The position numbers were made by a program, and so were the translations under genes. The notes under the pieces were generated by a model that saw nothing but the letters and a program-made list of their open reading frames with translations, ran no database searches and was not told the DNA's origin. Positions 56,536-63,724 of a stretch of 64,000 nt of DNA are shown piece by piece; position 1 is the stretch's first letter, and the number at the start of each line of letters is the position of its first letter. This stretch comes from an uncultured Gemmatimonadaceae bacterium (GTDB lineage: Bacteria > Gemmatimonadota > Gemmatimonadetes > Gemmatimonadales > Gemmatimonadaceae): positions 1,152,001-1,216,000 of the forward strand of contig CAVUDW010000003.1 of assembly GCA_963740355.1 (NCBI GenBank). The letters run 5' to 3'.

Positions 56536-59506
56536 ATGTCCGATCGTTCGAGGAGTATCGCGCGGGTGCAGTTCCTCGGGGCTCAGCGGATCGAGATCGG
56601 GAGCGACGAGGTGACCCCGGAAGCCGAGCGGCTGTTCGGCATGATCGTGCGCCTTAGCGTGCCGCTGGGGCGGATCACGTCACGGCAGACGATGATGGAC
56701 ACATTGTGGCCTGGCGCGGGCGATGCGAACGCGCGGCACAACCTTCGGCAGACGGTCTACAAGGCACGCGAGATTGGGCTGGTGGTGGAGTCAGGCGAGG
56801 ACGGCCTGCGGCTCGATCCCCGTCACTGGTCGTGCGACTGGGACGATCCAGTCGGCGACGTGGGTGGCGAGTGGCTGCCTAACTACGTGCCGGAGTTTTC
56901 CGAGGAGCTGGCGGCCTGGATCACGGCGCAGCGGGTGGGCGTGCACGCCCTGATCCGACCGCGGATCATCCGGTCGTTGCAGACGGCGCGTTCGGCCGGC
57001 GATCTGGCGATTGCGGATCGATATGCGGCGCAGCTGCTGCGGATCGACGAGTTGAACGAGGAGGCGACGCTCACGCGGGCGGAGTTGCTGGCGATGCAGG
57101 GCGCGAAGATCGACGCGCTTCGGCTACTGGATGCGTATCTGGCCGAGATCGGGCGTCTGGGGTCGGGCAAGGATGCGGCGTTGCCGGCGCAGTTGCTGCG
57201 GCGCCGGATCGCCGAGAAGCTGCCGACGGTGGCGTACCAGAGTGGCGCCAAGCATCACGGGCCGTTGGTCGGCCGGCAGCGCGAGTCGAAGAAGCTGTTG
57301 GCGGGGCTCTTCGATGCGCGGGCGGGGAGGGGCCAGGCTTTCCTGCTTCAGGGTGGTGATGGCAGCGGCAAGACGCGGCTGTTGTACGAGACGCGGAAGT
57401 CGGCGGCGTTGCAGGGGATGCAGGTGTTCGAGATGGCGTGTGACAGCACGCCGAGTGCGATGCCGTTTGCGGCGATGCGTTCGTTGGTGGCGCGGATGCT
57501 GACCTATCCGGGTGCGCTGGGTATCGCGCCGGAAGCGATGGGCGTGTTGCGGGCGTGGCTGTCGAGCAACGAGTTCGCACCGGACGATTGTCCGCTGGCC
57601 GAGATCGAGGACTTGCTGGCGTCGGTGTCGGAGGAGACGCCGTTGTTGTTGCTGGTGGAGCATGCGGAGCGCATCGATGCCGAGTCGTTGGGGCGGTTGG
57701 ACCGGGTGTATCGGAAGGGGGTGCTACGGCATCACATGATGGTGCTGACGACGTCGACGCAGGCGACGCCGACGGAGAGTCCGGTGGAGGTGCAGTGGGT
57801 GGAGCGGGTGGCGTTGCGGCCAATGTCGACAGTTGACGTTCGCGCGATTGTGTCCGCCTATGCCGCAGCCGAGCAACGTCGTGCGACTCAAGACGAAATC
57901 GCGTGCGCCGCCGTGTTCGCAGAGGGTGTTCCGATGTTTGGAATTGAAATGCTCGGGCTAATACTCGATTCTGGATCACCAGACCTTATTCCATGGCGCG
58001 TTCAAATCGCGGTCGATCGGTCGCTTCGAGAGCTGAATGAACTTCAGTGGCGCATACTCTCGCTCTGTAGCGCTCTCAGAAAGAGCGCTCGCCAAGCACT
58101 GGTAGCAGCGGCACTCCATCTGCAGGAGAACGAATTCGCTGCGGCTGCTTGATGGCCTCGAGGATCCCGGCTACCTGCAGTACGAAGACGGGATTTTGAA
58201 ATCTTACTTGGCTCATGGCAGACAAAGCCAGCGAACGAGTTCGCGCCAATGTACTACGGAGCGACGCTTTGTCAGCCGCGAATGAGATGTTGCGCGATGC
58301 GGCTGGATTCACGAATCCCGCAGATTTCTACACGTGCATTCGCCTTACTGTAGTGGCCGGTGAGGAGGGGCGGGCAAAGTTTCTCCTAGACTCGGAGGTT
58401 GGCGCGCTCGTGCGAAGGGACACCGCGCTGGAATCGTGTTTGAGCTGGGCCAGCTGCGAAAGCTAGCACAATCGCGCGCCTTTAGCGTTCTCGTTGATGA
58501 AGTAATTGCGCAGATCCGCGGAGGAGCCGAGAGCAAACGCCCTAGTCGGCGGGCGGCAAGCTACCGCTCCAAGCCTTCATCGCTACCATCGATATCTGAT
58601 GCGTCCGTTGAGGTAGAGTATACGCTGTCATCAACGCAGTCCCTGGTCGCCACACTCAGTGAGTCTCGAAATCCCAATTCTGCACCCGAGAGACGCCTTG
58701 CAGAGGCGGTGATGGCTCTCTTTGTGGCGTCGAATCTGGCGACAAAGCGGGCTGACGGCGTCCTTTCAGCCGTAAACGCGGTCAGGTATTCGAAGGATGT
58801 GAATCCATTTGACATACACCGGGCGGATCTGATTTTCTTCGCCTCAGTGGGGCTTCGAGAGAAAGCGCTAGAGGCCGCGCATCAACTATCCGCTAAGTCT
58901 CGTACCGTGCACGACGTTCAGCTGGCGTGCAAGGGACTGAGAAATGCGGCGGAGGTGCACTCGACTTTCGGCGATGAAAGGCAGCTCATTCGCTACTTCT
59001 TGAGTCGCGTAGCCTAGCGGCAACATTGAAGTATCACGCACAAATCGTGTGGGCCGACATCCGCCTTGCGGATCTCCGATTGGAAGCAATGGATCTTGAG
59101 GGGGCGAATGCTTATCTGACGAGTGCGATGATATCGTCGATAGCATACCGCCTATAGCACCGCTGCTCTCGCGGACCTCAATGTCGCAGACAGTGCTGGG
59201 AAGGTGCTAATGCGCGGCGCATCGGCCAGGCGACAGAAGGCCGCGCGAATTGTAGCAAGAACTCGGTGCACGCCTCTAGAACCGGCACTGCACTCTGGAC
59301 TCGTTCTCGGTGTCAGACTCGCGACACACGCAGGACCTTTCGCCAGAGACACAGCTCGGGACTATTCGTTGCTTAAGGAGAGTATTGCCAGCAGACCATT
59401 CTATCCGAACGAACAGTTGAGCCTCGCTGCGTTGGTGCTCTACAGAGCACTTCCGCGGGCACCAAGAAGTCTCAAAATTCGTGCGTGCGCAGCTTCCGCG
59501 CATTGA
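56536..59506 (+). CDS. BTAD/SARP-type regulator with AAA (STAND-like) ATPase; multiply frameshifted after ~58150; end uncertain
   Basis: LWP...ARHNLRQ..Y, L.IDELNEEA, LVGR..E, Walker A GGDGSGKT; continuing fragments at 58215, 58436 and 59204. Confidence 0.7.
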
Positions 59507-59601
59507 AAGCACCGGGAGGATCGCATTCTTGAGTTCTCCTTTCGCGGACGTAGAGAAAATGTCGCGAAAGACTCGCACCATAAAGCACCCCTATTTTGAC
59601 T

Positions 59602-60909
59602 CTATCCGTTTGCGAGCAGTGAAAGAGTTGGTTCTGCTGCAAAATCGTCCTCATGCGAAGCGCAGGCAAGCCTCAATACTGTGTCGATTGTTCCTGCAGC
59701 GAATAGCGTTGCCAACATCTCGGGATCAAACTGAATGCCACTCATCCGCAACATCTCTGCGCGAATCTTATCCGCTGCAAGGCCTCGACGGTACGGTCGG
59801 TCACTCGCCATGGCGTCGATCGTGTCTGCAATCGCAATGATCCGAGCAAACACTGGGGATTGCTTCACCCGCCAACGCATCTGGATAGCCAGAACCGTCC
59901 CATGCTTCGTGGTGATGCCGAATCGGATCTACCGTATCACGCAGGTGCGAAGAAATTCGAACGAGTTCGGCGCCCTTGATCGGATGCGACTCCATGATCG
60001 CGCGTTCTTCGGCTGTGAGCTTTCCCGGCTTCGCCAGAATCGGAGCGAACACTTCGTGAATCTTCCCTACATCGTGCAGAAGACCAGCCACTGCAAGCGT
60101 TCAACCTGCTTCGCCGAAAGCGAGAGTGCCTGACCCATCATCGTTGAATACTGCGAGACACGCCTAGAGTGACCCGAAGTATAGGGATCACGAGCTTCAA
60201 GCGTCGTAACGGTGAGCTCGAGAAGCTCTTTGTTCGAAACGTGCAGCTCTTCATTCGTGCTGTTCAGCTGACGAACGATTAGCACCAACGCCGCCGCAGC
60301 AGACGTCGCAAGCACGCCGAACTTCACGTACACCGTTACGAAGACGAAGACGAACGGCAAGGCAACGAGATCGAAGAAAAATCCACGCTGCCCTTCCTTC
60401 CAAATCGAAATGTATTTCGTCTGCGTCTCTGCGCTCACCACTGCTGCAACCGCAGCTGAATTGGTGAGGACGAAGGCTAGGAATGCAGCGAGTACCGAAA
60501 GTGGACGTATATCACCACCGTAAACAGCTCCCGCCGCACCCGTCAGCCGATAGGCTACGACGGAGAAGGAAAGTGTGACGGCATGCTGGGCAACGTTGAA
60601 AACAAGCTTTGCTGTCTCCTTCCGCATCAGCAGCTGTGCCAACAGAATGACACCTACGGCGCTGAGTACAGAGACCCAAGAAGGGACGAGAACGACACTG
60701 GCTAGGAACGTGACGAATGTTGCCTGGCCATTCACGCGATCGGACAGCGCGTACGGCATAAGAGCGCCAAAGACAGAAAACACCGCAAAGGCGATTGCGG
60801 CGTTGAGCTCGACTGGATCTACGCGTGGTTCGAAAGCGTAGAGAGCAACAAGACTCCCCGCTCCGACCAGCGCGGTCAGCGTTACTATCGTCTTCGTGGC
60901 CTTTCGCAA
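59602..60909 (-). CDS. Membrane-anchored HD-GYP c-di-GMP phosphodiesterase (~7 TM N-terminal sensor); frameshifts ~60088 and ~59855
   Basis: EARDPYTSGHS.RV / LLHDVGK...HHHEAWDGSGYP / ARIIAIAD..DAM.SDRPYR across three frames. Confidence 0.88.
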
Positions 60910-60944
60910 GCAGATCCCCCCGCCTCGGACTTCAAACTAGTTCT

Positions 60945-61013
60945 TCAGTTCCACGTCTGCGTACCGCCAAAAGCTGCGGCGATAAGACCTGCGAATGCGG
61001 CCCAGAAACCCAT
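60945..61013 (-). CDS. 22-aa peptide MGFWAAFAGLIAAAFGGTQTWN (below the ORF-track cutoff)
   Basis: AAGGGAGGTG Shine-Dalgarno 7 nt before ATG; TGA stop 35 nt upstream of the HD-GYP start. Confidence 0.7.
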   Translation of the reverse strand: MGFWAAFAGLIAAAFGGTQTWN

Positions 61014-61162
61014 CTTGCGTCACCTCCCTTCCGTCGTCAGTCCTCCGCTCTCGCGTCAGACTGCCTCCATCGGTGGGCTCCGCTCGTACTACTGGCCGTA
61101 CCCGCTCAACTCCGCTCTGCCGAGGACGGGGGGATTACTAATTCTGCTTTCCACTAACACAC

Positions 61163-61177
61163 GCGTCTTTCGTGCCA
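61163..61177 (-). promoter_or_regulatory. Putative sigma-54 (-24/-12) promoter
   Basis: Minus strand TGGCACG-AAAG-ACGC: perfect -24 box and GG-N10-GC spacing; imperfect -12 box. Confidence 0.5.
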
Positions 61178-61272
61178 GTGACCGACAGTTTGTCTTTCCC
61201 GCCGCCCGCGGTGACTTCGTCACCACCACACGCAACGCCCGCCGGTCACCTGCAAGGCCTGACCACCCTCCC

Positions 61273-62112
61273 CTACCGGTCAGCCTCCAACCACCGATTC
61301 GTTGCGTCCAACACTGCCAGTGCGCCCGCCACCTCGGCACTGTCGCGGATCACACAACTCCCGCTCAATAGCACCGATTGACGCCCCTGCCGCACCGTCA
61401 CACCAACCAACACGAACTCCGTCCCGAAGGCGTCCACCCGCTGCGCACCCGCCAGCGCCAGGCTCCCCGCCTTCCCTTCCGCAAATGCAATCGCGAGGAC
61501 CGTCGCCCGAGCCGCCAGCTCCAACCGCGCGGCCTCAGTCTCCAGCCCTTCCGCTTCTCCCTCAAAGGACTCCTCACCCCGCCGCAGCGTCACGCGACAT
61601 CCCAGGCCGCTGCGACTCCGCTTCACCTCGACGTCGTCGAAGATGTACCGGCGCACCCCGCTCACCTCGGGCGCGCTGACCGGCGTCACAGCCGGCGCGG
61701 CGATACCAGGGGCAGGCGCAGGGGCAGCCATCGGAATCGGCGCCGGACCAGCGATCGCGTCGACCGCCGATGGCGTCAGACGAATCCGCGGAGCATCCAC
61801 CGTCGTCGCGACACTGATCTTCCGGTGGTCGACACGCATGCCGAGATGCGCCAGCAACGCACTCTCGATGTTGCGCACGGTCTGCTTCGGACCGATTTCG
61901 ACCGACGTGAGTACATGAATGGCATCGACCTCGCCGCTGGGCGACGCCTCGATGCGCACGCTCACCACACCAGGCAACGTGCCGAGCAACTCCTCAGCGC
62001 GCGCGATGTGAATCGCGGAGGGACGGCTCGAACCGCCGCCAGCGCCGGCTGCTGTTGTGAAGACAGACACGGTCACGTTCTTTCGCGGGTGGAAGTGCAA
62101 AAGAGCGAACAC
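61273..62112 (-). CDS. Conserved-looking two-domain hypothetical protein (start may be ~62070)
   Basis: N-domain IHVL...PKQTVRNIESAL...VDHRKISVA; Pro/Ala linker; C-domain ending AVLDATNR. Confidence 0.75.
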   Translation of the reverse strand: MFALLHFHPRKNVTVSVFTTAAGAGGGSSRPSAIHIARAEELLGTLPGVVSVRIEASPSGEVDAIHVLTSVEIGPKQTVRNIESALLAHLGMRVDHRKISVATTVDAPRIRLTPSAVDAIAGPAPIPMAAPAPAPGIAAPAVTPVSAPEVSGVRRYIFDDVEVKRSRSGLGCRVTLRRGEESFEGEAEGLETEAARLELAARATVLAIAFAEGKAGSLALAGAQRVDAFGTEFVLVGVTVRQGRQSVLLSGSCVIRDSAEVAGALAVLDATNRWLEADR

Positions 62113-62185: not shown

Positions 62186-63724
62186 TCAAGAGTCAGCGTC
62201 CTCAACCGTTTCGCCACCCTCGATTTCCCTGATCTTCCGGTACAGCGTCCGCTCCCCGATTCCCAACAATTCTGCTGCCCGCCGACGATTGCCGCGCGTC
62301 TCCCGCAACGTCGCCTCGATCACGGCCCGCTCGATCTGTGCCATCGTCATCCCCGGCACCACTTCGACCGAATTGGGCAACCGCGCACTCATCGGCTCAA
62401 CCGCACCGCCCGCCACCAACGCCTCAGGCACTGCCGCCGCCGGAGACTGGTCCAGACGACGACGCAAGTCTTCGACCTGAACCTTCAACTCGACCAGATT
62501 CCGCAAGATGAACTCGAGCTCAGCCGCACCGAGCACCTGATTCGTATCAGGAGTGTTCCGATTGCCCGGCACCGGCGGCAACCGCACCGGCAACATCCGT
62601 GTCAGCCCGTCCCGGATCTGCGGTGGAATGTCCGCCACGCCGATCTCATGGCCGGGCGATAACACCACCATGCTCTCGATCAGGTTACGCAGCTCTCGAA
62701 CATTGCCCGGCCACGAGTATCGCGCCAGCATCTCCATGGCCTCGGCCGAGATGCCATGGAACGCCTTGTCATGCCGGCGCGAAAATTCGGCGATGAAACG
62801 CCGCACCAGCACCGGGATGTCCGACTTCCGCTCGCGGAGCGGCGGCAGGTACATGCTGAGGACGTTGAGCCGGTAATAGAGATCCGACCGGAACGCCCCC
62901 TCCTCCACCAGCTCGCGCAACGGCCGGTTGGTGGCCGCGATGACACGCACGTTCACTGGAATGCTGGTCACGCCACCAACACGCGTGACTTCACGCTCCT
63001 CCAGCACCCGCAGCAACTTCACCTGCGTCGAGGGCGGGATGTCACCGATCTCGTCCAGAAAAAGAGTGCCGCCGTCCGCCAGCTCGAAGCGCCCCAGTCG
63101 ACGCTCGGCGGCGCCTGTGAACGCGCCCTTCTCATGGCCGAAGAGCTCGCTCTCGAGGAGCGTCTCGGCCAGCGCGCCGACGTTCACGCCGATGAACGGC
63201 TTGTTCCGGCGAGGGCCGAGGCGATGGATGCCGCGCGCCACCAGCTCCTTGCCCGTGCCGCTCTCGCCCTCGATCAACACCGTGCTCGATACCGGCGCGA
63301 TCTGCTCGATCTTCACCAGGACTTCGCGCAACGCCTCGGTGTCGCCGCTGAGCCCCGTCTCCTGACTCAGGCGGCGGCGCTCGAGAAGGCGGCGAACGAC
63401 GGGCGCCACATCTTCCGGAACGACCGGCTTCACCAGAACATCAGCGTAGCCAATGGTGCGCAGCCGTTCGCGCATCCCTGGCTCGTCGACGTCGGCCAAG
63501 CCGACGACCGGTACCCCGGCCCACAGTTCCTCGCGCACCACCTGCACGTTGCCGGTATCGAGCAGCGCCCCCGTGATCACCACCACGTCCGGCTCGAAGC
63601 GCTCGAGCGAACCGCGGATGTCATCCAGCGGCGACACCATTTCCGTGGTGATGCCCGAATGCTCGAGCAGCGCGTTGAGACGCACGGCCGGCTCGACGTC
63701 GGTGAGCGTGATGAGAACCTTCAC
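62186..63724 (-). CDS. Sigma-54-dependent activator (atypical receiver-AAA-Fis HTH)
   Basis: GESGTGKE, ELFGHEKGAFTGA, LFLDEIG, WPGNVREL, GNRRRAAELLGI. Confidence 0.95.
   Translation of the reverse strand: MKVLITLTDVEPAVRLNALLEHSGITTEMVSPLDDIRGSLERFEPDVVVITGALLDTGNVQVVREELWAGVPVVGLADVDEPGMRERLRTIGYADVLVKPVVPEDVAPVVRRLLERRRLSQETGLSGDTEALREVLVKIEQIAPVSSTVLIEGESGTGKELVARGIHRLGPRRNKPFIGVNVGALAETLLESELFGHEKGAFTGAAERRLGRFELADGGTLFLDEIGDIPPSTQVKLLRVLEEREVTRVGGVTSIPVNVRVIAATNRPLRELVEEGAFRSDLYYRLNVLSMYLPPLRERKSDIPVLVRRFIAEFSRRHDKAFHGISAEAMEMLARYSWPGNVRELRNLIESMVVLSPGHEIGVADIPPQIRDGLTRMLPVRLPPVPGNRNTPDTNQVLGAAELEFILRNLVELKVQVEDLRRRLDQSPAAAVPEALVAGGAVEPMSARLPNSVEVVPGMTMAQIERAVIEATLRETRGNRRRAAELLGIGERTLYRKIREIEGGETVEDADS

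Follow-up and report, generated by a model that had tools for sequence, protein, structure and literature searches.

The window analysed here is a stretch of 64,000 nucleotides from an uncultured Gemmatimonadaceae bacterium (NCBI GenBank assembly GCA_963740355.1, contig CAVUDW010000003.1, positions 1,152,001 to 1,216,000 of the forward strand), and all positions given below are those of the window unless stated otherwise. Its reverse strand carries, one after the other, a gene for a sigma-54-dependent activator, a gene for a 279-residue protein, a 22-codon open reading frame (ORF), and a gene for an HD-GYP phosphodiesterase with a polytopic membrane part, the HD-GYP enzyme being one that degrades cyclic di-GMP (c-di-GMP). 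We are concerned here with the 22-codon ORF, referred to as the mini-ORF, and with the structured RNA leader in which it lies. The ATG codon of the mini-ORF begins 7 nt 3' of a Shine-Dalgarno (SD) sequence, AAGGGAGGTG, at 61030-61021, and a gap of 35 nt separates its TGA codon from the TTG codon (60909) of the next ORF on the same strand.

The mini-ORF is kept wherever the locus is complete. In the window's genus, referred to as g1, a 22-codon ORF with the same SD stands 104-107 nt before the HD-GYP orthologue in 14/14 loci, and at two loci of the same family (34% protein identity) 21-codon ORFs follow the same SD. We read 30 further loci, four of which are cut by the end of the locus. Each of the remaining 26 has a complete mini-ORF of 16-27 codons whose start lies 5-7 nt after GGGAGGTGA, and each has an open frame no more than 90 nt past the mini-ORF, overlapping it by 10 nt in two cases. 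This frame runs for 436-464 codons and is an HD-GYP homologue by tblastn in 25 of the 26; the exception is locus L112, which stops after 35 codons of the frame and ends before the gene. Because the same position and the same SD are kept in all complete orthologous loci, the mini-ORF is more than a chance reading frame: it is a real, conserved and unannotated gene.

Near-identical loci are found in Gemmatimonadaceae metagenome-assembled genomes. A pattern made of the two invariant blocks of the leader matches 52 of 401 genomes of the phylum, all in a single family (51 of the 93 genomes of family f1, and none of the 307 genomes of eleven other families), and the reversed control of this pattern gives 1 match. 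A covariance model of the hairpin that contains the SD finds the leader in 82/151 Gemmatimonadaceae genomes (63/109 high-quality genomes, 50/77 genera), nearly always once per genome. A transmembrane (TM) HD-GYP protein is found in 93 of the same 151 genomes. A hand tally of the two tables gives 74 genomes with both the leader model and the TM-HD-GYP protein, 8 with the leader model in which the protein was not found, 19 with the protein in which the leader model was not found, and 50 in which neither was found. The phylum, leader-model and TM-HD-GYP tallies include three unpublished genomes (G185, G438 and G439), and the loci that were read come from the other genomes.

The genomes with one partner in the tally bear on the linkage as well. 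Six of the eight genomes with the RNA alone have their match at the end of a contig, where the gene points beyond the assembled sequence. Among the 19 protein-only loci, one partial match was left out; a candidate mini-ORF is present in all 18 that were read (14 by a filtered scan for Trp-x-end, 4 on inspection), and the block GAGCGGA[AG]C is present in 16 of them. One further locus, L019, belongs to a second family of the same order (genome G034). At positions 1333-1414 of that locus in gene orientation, a GTG-start, 26-codon, Trp-ended mini-ORF follows GGGGGTGACGC, hidden in what appears to be an N-terminal extension of the HD-GYP frame; automatic gene calls at L019 probably start the enzyme too early. 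Given this mini-ORF in a second family, the module is wider than one family, and the leader precedes a polytopic HD-GYP gene in Gemmatimonadaceae and in at least one neighbouring family.

In the window itself the HD-GYP gene is read in three frame segments (60909-60067, 60091-59801 and 59880-59602), the third of which returns to the frame of the first. The two indels stand 235 nt apart: a base is lacking between 60094 and 60093, and the C-run 59858-59855 has one too many. The shifted segment still codes for a near-perfect HD-GYP core. The piece at 60091-59801 matches the Pfam family HD_5 with an E-value of 5e-15 (56.1 bits against a cut-off of 27.2), and the intact orthologue at locus L006 does so with 1.6e-33 (116.3 bits). 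This orthologue contains the motif HHEAWDGSGYP, and the same stretch, read by eye, is encoded in the window in the shifted frame; HHExxDGxGYP is the definition of the HD-GYP motif in the accessible part of bioRxiv 10.1101/2021.11.05.467447. The N-terminal part of the ORF encodes 280 residues that are hydrophobic and polytopic, a crude hydropathy scan of the intact orthologue yields roughly 6-9 hydrophobic segments, and the membrane part of the protein matches no Pfam family, even at E <= 5.

The mini-ORF had been proposed in an original prediction, made from the letters of the sequence, as an ORF with a strong SD that ends 35 nt before a gene for an HD-GYP protein with about seven TM segments. 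We reproduced its coordinates from the sequence and the ORF table, and a short SD-led ORF, which the prediction had proposed to look for upstream of homologous genes, was found at each complete locus examined. The HD-GYP identity of the downstream gene is confirmed by the HD_5 match and the motif, and the number of hydrophobic segments is consistent with the one proposed, but the split of the frame into three segments had been missed. The specific tie between the mini-ORF and a membrane HD-GYP gene is upheld by the co-occurrence of the leader model and the TM-HD-GYP protein in the 74 genomes and by the candidate mini-ORF in every protein-only locus read.

Structure of the leader RNA

The mini-ORF lies within a leader of about 230 nt that contains three helices, P1, P2 and P3, arranged around it (Table 1). 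When 13 leaders of the genus are aligned, the non-coding stretch before the mini-ORF and the 22 nt before the start of the enzyme are more conserved than the mini-ORF, a pattern of non-coding conservation that is explained by the three helices.

Table 1. Positions of the mini-ORF, the leader elements and the genes of the locus in the window (MFE, minimum free energy structure).
Feature	Position	Strand	Remarks
Leader mini-ORF	61013..60945	(-)	ATG, 22 codons plus TGA at 60947-60945; peptide MGFWAAFAGLIAAAFGGTQTWN
P1 5' arm, C-rich, AUCCCCCCGUCCUCGG	61120..61135	(-)	Paired to 60928-60914 in the MFE of the window
Two repeats rich in purines, GAGCGGAG / GAGCGGG, in the P1-P2 junction	61101..61117	(-)	Unpaired in the model, nearly invariant
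P2 anti-SD strand, GAGCGGAGCCCACC	61072..61085	(-)	Varies at no more than one or two positions across 40 loci
P3, variable hairpin capping P2	61036..61064	(-)	Anchored by GCA...UGAC; covaries
P2 3' strand, mini-ORF SD plus spacer, GGGAGGUGACGC	61017..61028	(-)	GGGAGGTGA invariant in 39/39 alignment rows
P1 3' arm, CCGAGGCGGGGGGAU	60914..60928	(-)	Holds the G-run 60921-60916, the sole SD-like element ahead of the HD-GYP start
Polytopic-membrane HD-GYP phosphodiesterase gene	59602..60909	(-)	Broken by two compensating 1-nt indels
279-residue protein of unknown function	61273..62112	(-)	Conserved upstream neighbour; syntenic in all loci with enough flank
Sigma-54-dependent activator (bacterial enhancer-binding protein)	62186..63724	(-)	Sigma54_activat 4.1e-69, HTH_8 8.5e-14; syntenic

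P2 forms between GAGCGGAGCC.ACC (61085-61072) and GGGAGGUGACGC as three short runs of pairs split by G-A/A-G and A-A/G-A mismatches, and it buries the very strong SD of the mini-ORF (GGGAGGUGA). The helix is present in the MFE of 37 of 40 isolated segments, with energies of -21 to -35.5 kcal/mol, and in the RNAalifold consensus of every alignment tried. P2b, the inward extension of P2, and P3 both covary. In the anchored stem of P3, levels 2-5 are 87-95% canonical in 38 loci, as compared to 42-68% when the partners are shuffled. The repeats in the P1-P2 junction are two more copies of the 8-mer that makes up the 5' half of the anti-SD strand, and a fourth copy is often found at the tip of P3.

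Whole-leader alignments made with MAFFT misplace P3 and the 3' arm, and RNAalifold run on them gave P2 only; hence we used the covariance model and anchored scripts. The model was seeded on 11 sequences of one genus and matched once each in 45 of 48 sources, missing loci L019, L020 and L038. In the model alignment (45 matches, 941 cells), 94.8% of the pairs are standard, versus 77.7% in shuffles, and when the partners are slid the value falls to 28-43%. The covariation score is 0.374 versus 0.120 in shuffles, a value that none of 500 shuffles reaches. Changes on both sides occur in 16 of 24 pairs; in support of P3, they occur in all eight pairs of helix 4 and four of the five pairs of helix 5.

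P1 encloses the whole mini-ORF. A cognate duplex was found in 40/40 loci, with a mean of -33.6 kcal/mol for cognate arms and -27.0 kcal/mol for non-cognate arms. When the shared C-run and G-run are removed, the distal arms still pair at -11.1 kcal/mol in cognate and -7.4 kcal/mol in non-cognate combinations, 36 of 38 cognate combinations beating the median of their row, and at least a dozen different distal-arm sequences remain complementary. Among the full-length MFE structures of 39 leaders, P1 is present in 38, P2 in 31 and both in 30. The fold of the window leader has a z-score of -3.35.

Two further pairings were considered and set aside. A GGCCA:UGGCC pairing of the junction with codons 3-5, which RNAalifold proposed for 18 sequences, is not claimed here, its elements being absent from several genera; a pairing of the anti-SD strand with the V-L-A-D codons, seen in some leaders of genus g23, is inconsistent across genera.

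The peptide family encoded by the mini-ORF

Taken without any filter, the 40 loci encode 37 distinct peptides, and 36 of these end in Trp-x-stop; this Trp is the best-conserved residue of the peptide. A further 20 Trp residues occur elsewhere in the 37 peptides. The stop codons of the 40 mini-ORFs are TGA in 25, TAG in 8 and TAA in 7. Judged from its variation, the overall constraint on the peptide is mild, since pN/pS (nonsynonymous relative to synonymous polymorphism) is 0.54 and 0.46 in two genera and variable sites affect each of the three codon positions (for genus g1, in 16, 12 and 17 of 21 codons).

The pattern of conserved residues was read from a wider set of 55 distinct peptides, which was filtered for Trp in the last 7 residues and is therefore unusable for counting Trp conservation. 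Relative to the Trp, positions -8 to -6 are hydrophobic, position -5 is Gly or Ala in 35/55 and position -4 is Asp, Glu or Gly in 46/55. The stop codon follows the Trp directly in five of the 55 peptides and stands five residues later in two. Thus, the spacing of the Trp is fixed to the Gly-Asp motif and not to the stop. Codon usage within the motif was counted in 28 distinct ORFs, in rows chosen by the shared motif: Phe is written TTT 8 and TTC 16 times; Leu TTG 14, CTG 7, CTC 1 and CTT 1; Gly GGT 8, GGG 3, GGC 3 and GGA 1; and Asp GAC 11 and GAT 17. That the conserved Phe, Leu, Gly and Asp are each written with two to four synonymous codons indicates that selection acts on the amino acids.

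The family can be described as a hydrophobic or amphipathic helix followed by [GA]-[DEG]-x3-W-x. Most members are 22-23 residues long and have a hydrophobic stretch of 14-16 residues; in our own reading of the peptide lists, small or polar residues lie on one face of the helix at positions 2, 6, 9, 13, 16/17 and 20. Two peptides have only 16 residues, and Lys, His, Gln and Arg abound in two others, which are 19-20-mers. At the N-terminus the peptides are neutral or acidic and do not resemble signal sequences. None of 11 ATG-start peptides is found in a collection of about 15 billion predicted proteins; two GTG-start peptides are uninformative in this look-up, their start being translated as Val there. 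We also considered whether the mini-ORF is a split-off first helix of the enzyme and rejected this, because the first helix of the enzyme also opens the homologue at locus L020, a locus in which no mini-ORF was found.

Since the [GA]-[DEG]-x3-W motif is kept at the level of amino acids, the peptide probably also acts itself, either on the membrane domain of the enzyme or as a nascent chain in the ribosome.

A proposed translational relay and competing explanations

Measured from the end of the mini-ORF stop codon, the P1 duplex begins anywhere from 6 nt before to 17 nt after, and the G-run of its 3' arm 7-26 nt after. In genus g1 the HD-GYP gene starts with TTG or GTG 6-7 nt past the G-run, and therefore the G-run is the SD of the HD-GYP gene in that genus; in other genera the start is likely an ATG 11-25 nt past the G-run, with no other SD-like element. 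By computation, the downstream ribosome site is hidden in P1, and translation of the mini-ORF would disrupt this helix.

The reading that we favour, and hold to be probable by a modest measure, is that the mini-ORF is a leader ORF within a structured leader and serves as a translational relay that switches on translation of the HD-GYP enzyme. In the resting fold, P2 would mask the SD of the mini-ORF and P1 would mask the G-rich ribosome-binding region of the HD-GYP gene. Some signal would open P2, and ribosomes could then translate the mini-ORF. Ribosomes that reach the mini-ORF stop codon would unzip P1, exposing the HD-GYP start region, or would re-initiate there, and synthesis of the enzyme would in this way be coupled to translation of the mini-ORF. 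The signal could be a protein that binds to the GAGCGGAG/GGA repeats, a small ligand or temperature, or ribosomes could stall at the conserved Trp or the stop codon. The analysis shows the ORF and its conservation, the three helices with covariation, their geometry and the link to the HD-GYP gene; from the structure we infer the translation of the mini-ORF, its coupling to that of the enzyme and the presence of a trigger.

Several observations weigh against the relay, or against parts of the evidence for it. Both strands of P2 are invariant, so that P2 itself does not covary and its support comes from P2b and P3, and the covariation alignment was fitted to the model, which favours structure. 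Since the P1 arms have a C-run/G-run core in common and many of the loci are kin, the cognate distal arm ranks first in its row in just 5 of 38 cases. Another pairing supplants P2 in the MFE of 8 of 39 leaders; in the four inspected, the energies are 0.3-5.4 kcal/mol apart and the SD is still mostly paired. In genus g1, including the window, the 3' arm of P1 starts 16 nt after the stop, which is beyond the direct reach of a terminating ribosome; the unwinding of P1 would therefore be indirect there. The leader matches no Rfam 15 family, including c-di-GMP-I and -II, in a cmscan search of 59000-62000 at E <= 1, the sole match being an irrelevant one to mir-4928 (E 0.1) elsewhere in the region. 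The HD-GYP frame is uninterrupted in 13 orthologues of the genus (442-448 residues) but broken in this genome. An environmental DNA contig from a public sediment metagenome, with 2 other differences in 140 nt, carries the extra base at the first indel site, and the breaks are either assembly errors (the genome is in 5 contigs) or very recent. Lastly, the conservation of the motif, the helix face and the length of the peptide exceeds what a pure relay needs, which argues for a function of the peptide itself.

Contigs of four sequencing runs were compared with the stretch. Those of three RNA-seq libraries (two studies) cover 60916-61121, that is, the leader and the mini-ORF, with 1-11 differences per 96-190 nt; the best two have 1 difference in 102 nt and 1 in 121 nt. 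These contigs are a weak hint that relatives transcribe the element, as RNA libraries can contain DNA and contigs give neither transcript ends nor transcript levels. Two of the contigs end at 60916; being short assemblies of co-occurring variants, the contigs probably end at branch points of the assembly graph. That no RNA contig reaches into the part of the 1.7-kb stretch that codes for HD-GYP is therefore uninformative. Among public sequencing runs, none has more than 11% of the sampled words of the stretch.

As for the trigger, the repeated 8-mer suggests a site for a protein or a ligand. Of the three 5' repeats, two contain GGA, as does the SD of the mini-ORF, and a CsrA gene is present in the genome (contig C2:175467-175622 (-), locus L138; 71.3 bits, above the Pfam cut-off), so that CsrA could be a binder of the GGA-bearing repeats. 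TRAP-like (G/U)AG repeats were considered and rejected: the triplets are not enriched (6.4 versus 5.4 in shuffles), and their spacing of 2-3 nt, which is (2.9 versus 0.6), results from the 8-mer repeat itself. A TRAP gene was not found in the genome, which is 94.5% complete. A much more far-reaching version would make the whole element a new signal-responsive RNA switch, in which the GA-mismatched helix and the GAGCGGAG repeats bind a ligand or a dedicated protein and gate the phosphodiesterase through the Trp-ended micropeptide relay, and in which the micropeptide is an intramembrane partner or ligand of the uncharacterised 8-helix sensor domain of the enzyme, all within one self-contained module; taken as a whole, we consider this version unlikely.

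The live second reading, which we regard as possible though doubtful, is that the peptide is a small membrane or amphipathic protein that binds to the polytopic domain of the HD-GYP enzyme as a subunit or modulator, the RNA serving only to ensure co-production. Such a role would suit the hydrophobic stretch of 14-16 residues with its small or polar face in most peptides, the [GA]-[DEG]-x3-W motif kept under varied synonymous codons, the terminal Trp, which resembles those of interfacial anchors, and the strict linkage of the peptide to one membrane protein; it is harder to reconcile with the two peptides of 16 residues, which are too short for a membrane span, with the two 19-20-mers, which are too polar, with a pN/pS of about 0.5, and with L020, whose start shows that the peptide did not arise as a first helix severed from the enzyme. 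MgrB-PhoQ, KdpF-KdpABC and AcrZ-AcrB are examples of small membrane proteins that are partners of sensors and pumps. Like these, the mini-ORF encodes a mostly hydrophobic mini-protein of fewer than 30 residues beside a presumed membrane partner; unlike these, some of its peptides are too short or too polar, and the binding to a partner is only presumed. No small-protein partner of an HD-GYP enzyme is on record in the literature searched. This second reading and the relay can both hold, since through coupling the peptide would be made along with the enzyme.

A ribosome that pauses at the Trp codon or at the stop could hold P1 open, which would make the mini-ORF an arrest or attenuation peptide of the kind seen in TnaC, ErmCL and the trp leader, and a special case of the relay in which the sensor lies in the ribosome. 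Conservation is indeed concentrated in the last ~10 residues, with the Trp one residue before the stop in 36/37, Trp is frequent elsewhere in the peptides (the 20 further residues), and the 3' arm of P1 abuts the stop. Against this, the distance from Trp to stop varies in the wider set (5/55 direct, two at five residues), the Trp being tied to the Gly-Asp motif; P2 already provides a separate gate; and we know of no link between Trp and the HD-GYP enzyme. We consider a pausing peptide quite improbable. We give little credence to the further reading that the peptide is exported, processed or not, and serves as a quorum or autocrine signal acting on c-di-GMP, which the HD-GYP protein would detect outside the cell through its membrane domain. 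The original prediction had leaned this way, on the analogy of AgrD/AgrC and ComX/ComP, and the locus does share with these systems a tiny, unannotated ORF beside a multi-TM signalling protein and a Trp near the C-terminus. The peptide also has a conserved C-terminal and a variable hydrophobic N-terminal part, a layout reminiscent of the leaderless short hydrophobic pheromones of streptococci, and its sequence differs between genera. However, the double Gly that had been taken as a leader cleavage site occurs essentially in genus g1, and elsewhere Gly-Asp, Ala-Asp, Arg-Asp and the like stand in its place; the whole peptide, at 16-27 residues, has no room for a leader and a mature part; its N-terminus is not signal-like; the receptor is no kinase; and tight coupling in cis by RNA structure fits co-production better than a diffusible signal. 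The conserved four-gene cluster contains no exporter, protease or modifying enzyme, and no gene of the AgrB or ComQ type; the original prediction had itself remarked that no processing enzyme is visible next to the mini-ORF. Of that prediction, then, the conserved mini-ORF, the HD-GYP link and the near-terminal Trp survive, the double-Gly site and the pheromone analogy are not supported, and the structured leader had escaped it. Least credible of all, to the point of being very hard to believe, is that the element is a type I toxin-like small mRNA that precedes the HD-GYP gene by chance. A small hydrophobic peptide, a buried SD and a helix that joins the 5' end to the region just past the stop are hallmarks of hok/aapA-type mRNAs and are all present here, but the element is single-copy within a fixed four-gene neighbourhood across 50/77 genera, the 3' arm of P1 doubles as the ribosome site of the HD-GYP gene, and several of the peptides are not hydrophobic.

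The logic of the proposed relay, in which translation of an upstream ORF frees the ribosome site that follows, has precedents in leader-peptide systems and in CsrA-dependent coupling to an upstream ORF. In ermC, with its leader peptide ErmCL, and in the MS2 coat-replicase pair, upstream translation melts a helix that hides the next ribosome site, and we propose the same for the ribosome on the mini-ORF. Here, in contrast, the masked strand pairs upstream of the SD of the mini-ORF and not inside the mini-ORF, and the target is a c-di-GMP phosphodiesterase. Unlike for the ermC type, we know of no antibiotic or ligand linked to the HD-GYP leader.

HD-GYP enzymes with purely membrane-embedded sensors are among the least understood parts of c-di-GMP signalling, and to our knowledge an input signal or partner is known for few of them. 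The element described here would be a conserved control module (structured leader, relay mini-ORF and micropeptide) carried by roughly half of the Gemmatimonadaceae genomes sampled. From it come a structured RNA motif that is new to Rfam, a micropeptide family overlooked by gene callers, and a model, testable with mutants, for post-transcriptional gating of the synthesis of a c-di-GMP phosphodiesterase. Were the peptide also to bind to the sensor domain, the HD-GYP enzyme would be the first of its kind with a small-protein partner.

In E. coli, CsrA represses iraD by way of a coupled short upstream ORF, according to the accessible part of the report (PMC5574718). To the extent that this part describes the system, the two arrangements share a short upstream ORF with its own ribosome site, at which control is exerted and passed downstream by coupling. 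The Gemmatimonadaceae leader likewise contains GGA elements, and CsrA is encoded in the genome. In the leader described here, by contrast, the downstream site is also locked by a long-range helix of ~200 nt, while an imperfect helix that does not vary locks the SD of the upstream ORF; the peptides form a conserved family; and the repeat GAGCGGAG exceeds the length that a CsrA site requires, CsrA binding being a candidate only. Small membrane-associated proteins that act on sporulation are regulated by a c-di-GMP riboswitch in Clostridioides difficile, as set out in the available portion of PMC13724677. There too, so far as that portion goes, the synthesis of small proteins is set by a structured leader within a c-di-GMP network, but the C. 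difficile leader is a class I c-di-GMP riboswitch that terminates transcription, whereas the Gemmatimonadaceae leader matches no Rfam family and precedes an enzyme that degrades c-di-GMP. In the accessible part of Galperin and Chou (bioRxiv 10.1101/2021.11.05.467447), the MASE9-HD-GYP proteins have an integral-membrane N-terminal domain of ~8 predicted segments that is joined straight to HD-GYP and lacks both a HAMP and a periplasmic domain, and no upstream mini-ORF is described for them in that part. The likeness to the enzyme in the window is one of architecture only, as far as the MASE9 description is available, the membrane part of the latter having no Pfam match at E <= 5. Neither Rfam nor the literature found, some of which was accessible in part, describes the leader motif, the nested masking of two ribosome sites, the family of peptides that end with Trp, or the link to HD-GYP.

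Promoter region and neighbouring genes

A sigma-54 promoter of the form TGGCACG-N4-nnGC (TGGCACGAAAGACGCG, 61177-61162 (-)) was considered as a general promoter of the leader and rejected, as it is present in nine loci of the genus and absent from five others and from other genera. In the window, this sigma-54-like -24/-12 element lies 28 nt before the P1 arm, and a sigma-54 activator is encoded two genes upstream. About 35 nt upstream of the sigma-54-like element, at 61210-61224 (-), is the perfect palindrome GGTGAC-GAA-GTCACC.

The genes for the sigma-54 activator and the 279-residue protein are syntenic upstream of the leader wherever the flank is long enough. The N-terminus of the activator is weakly receiver-like (Response_reg E 0.0065, below the cut-off). 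The 279-residue protein matches no Pfam or NCBIfam family, has no relative in the PDB by single sequence or profile, and gives nothing in PADLOC; the single-sequence PDB search returned low-complexity Pro/Ala matches only, and in a protein atlas its only relatives are hypothetical proteins of Gemmatimonadota. We built an AlphaFold2 model of it from an alignment of 24 rows, with a mean pLDDT (predicted local distance difference test score) of 77. The modelled N-terminal domain has an alpha-beta-beta-alpha-beta order, for which Foldseek points to the ring-building motifs of secretion systems, and is followed by a disordered Pro/Ala linker. The modelled C-terminal domain adopts a (beta3-alpha)x2 fold, and its best matches, searched as isolated domains, are the amino-acid (leucine/isoleucine)-binding regulatory domains of LeuA and citramalate synthase (E 9e-5 to 1.3e-3, target TM-score 0.5-0.6).

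Downstream of the HD-GYP gene, the same strand carries a 101-codon ORF (59276-59581 (-)) without a family assignment, and the opposite strand encodes a 538-residue protein with an AAA_16 domain (56536-58152 (+)).

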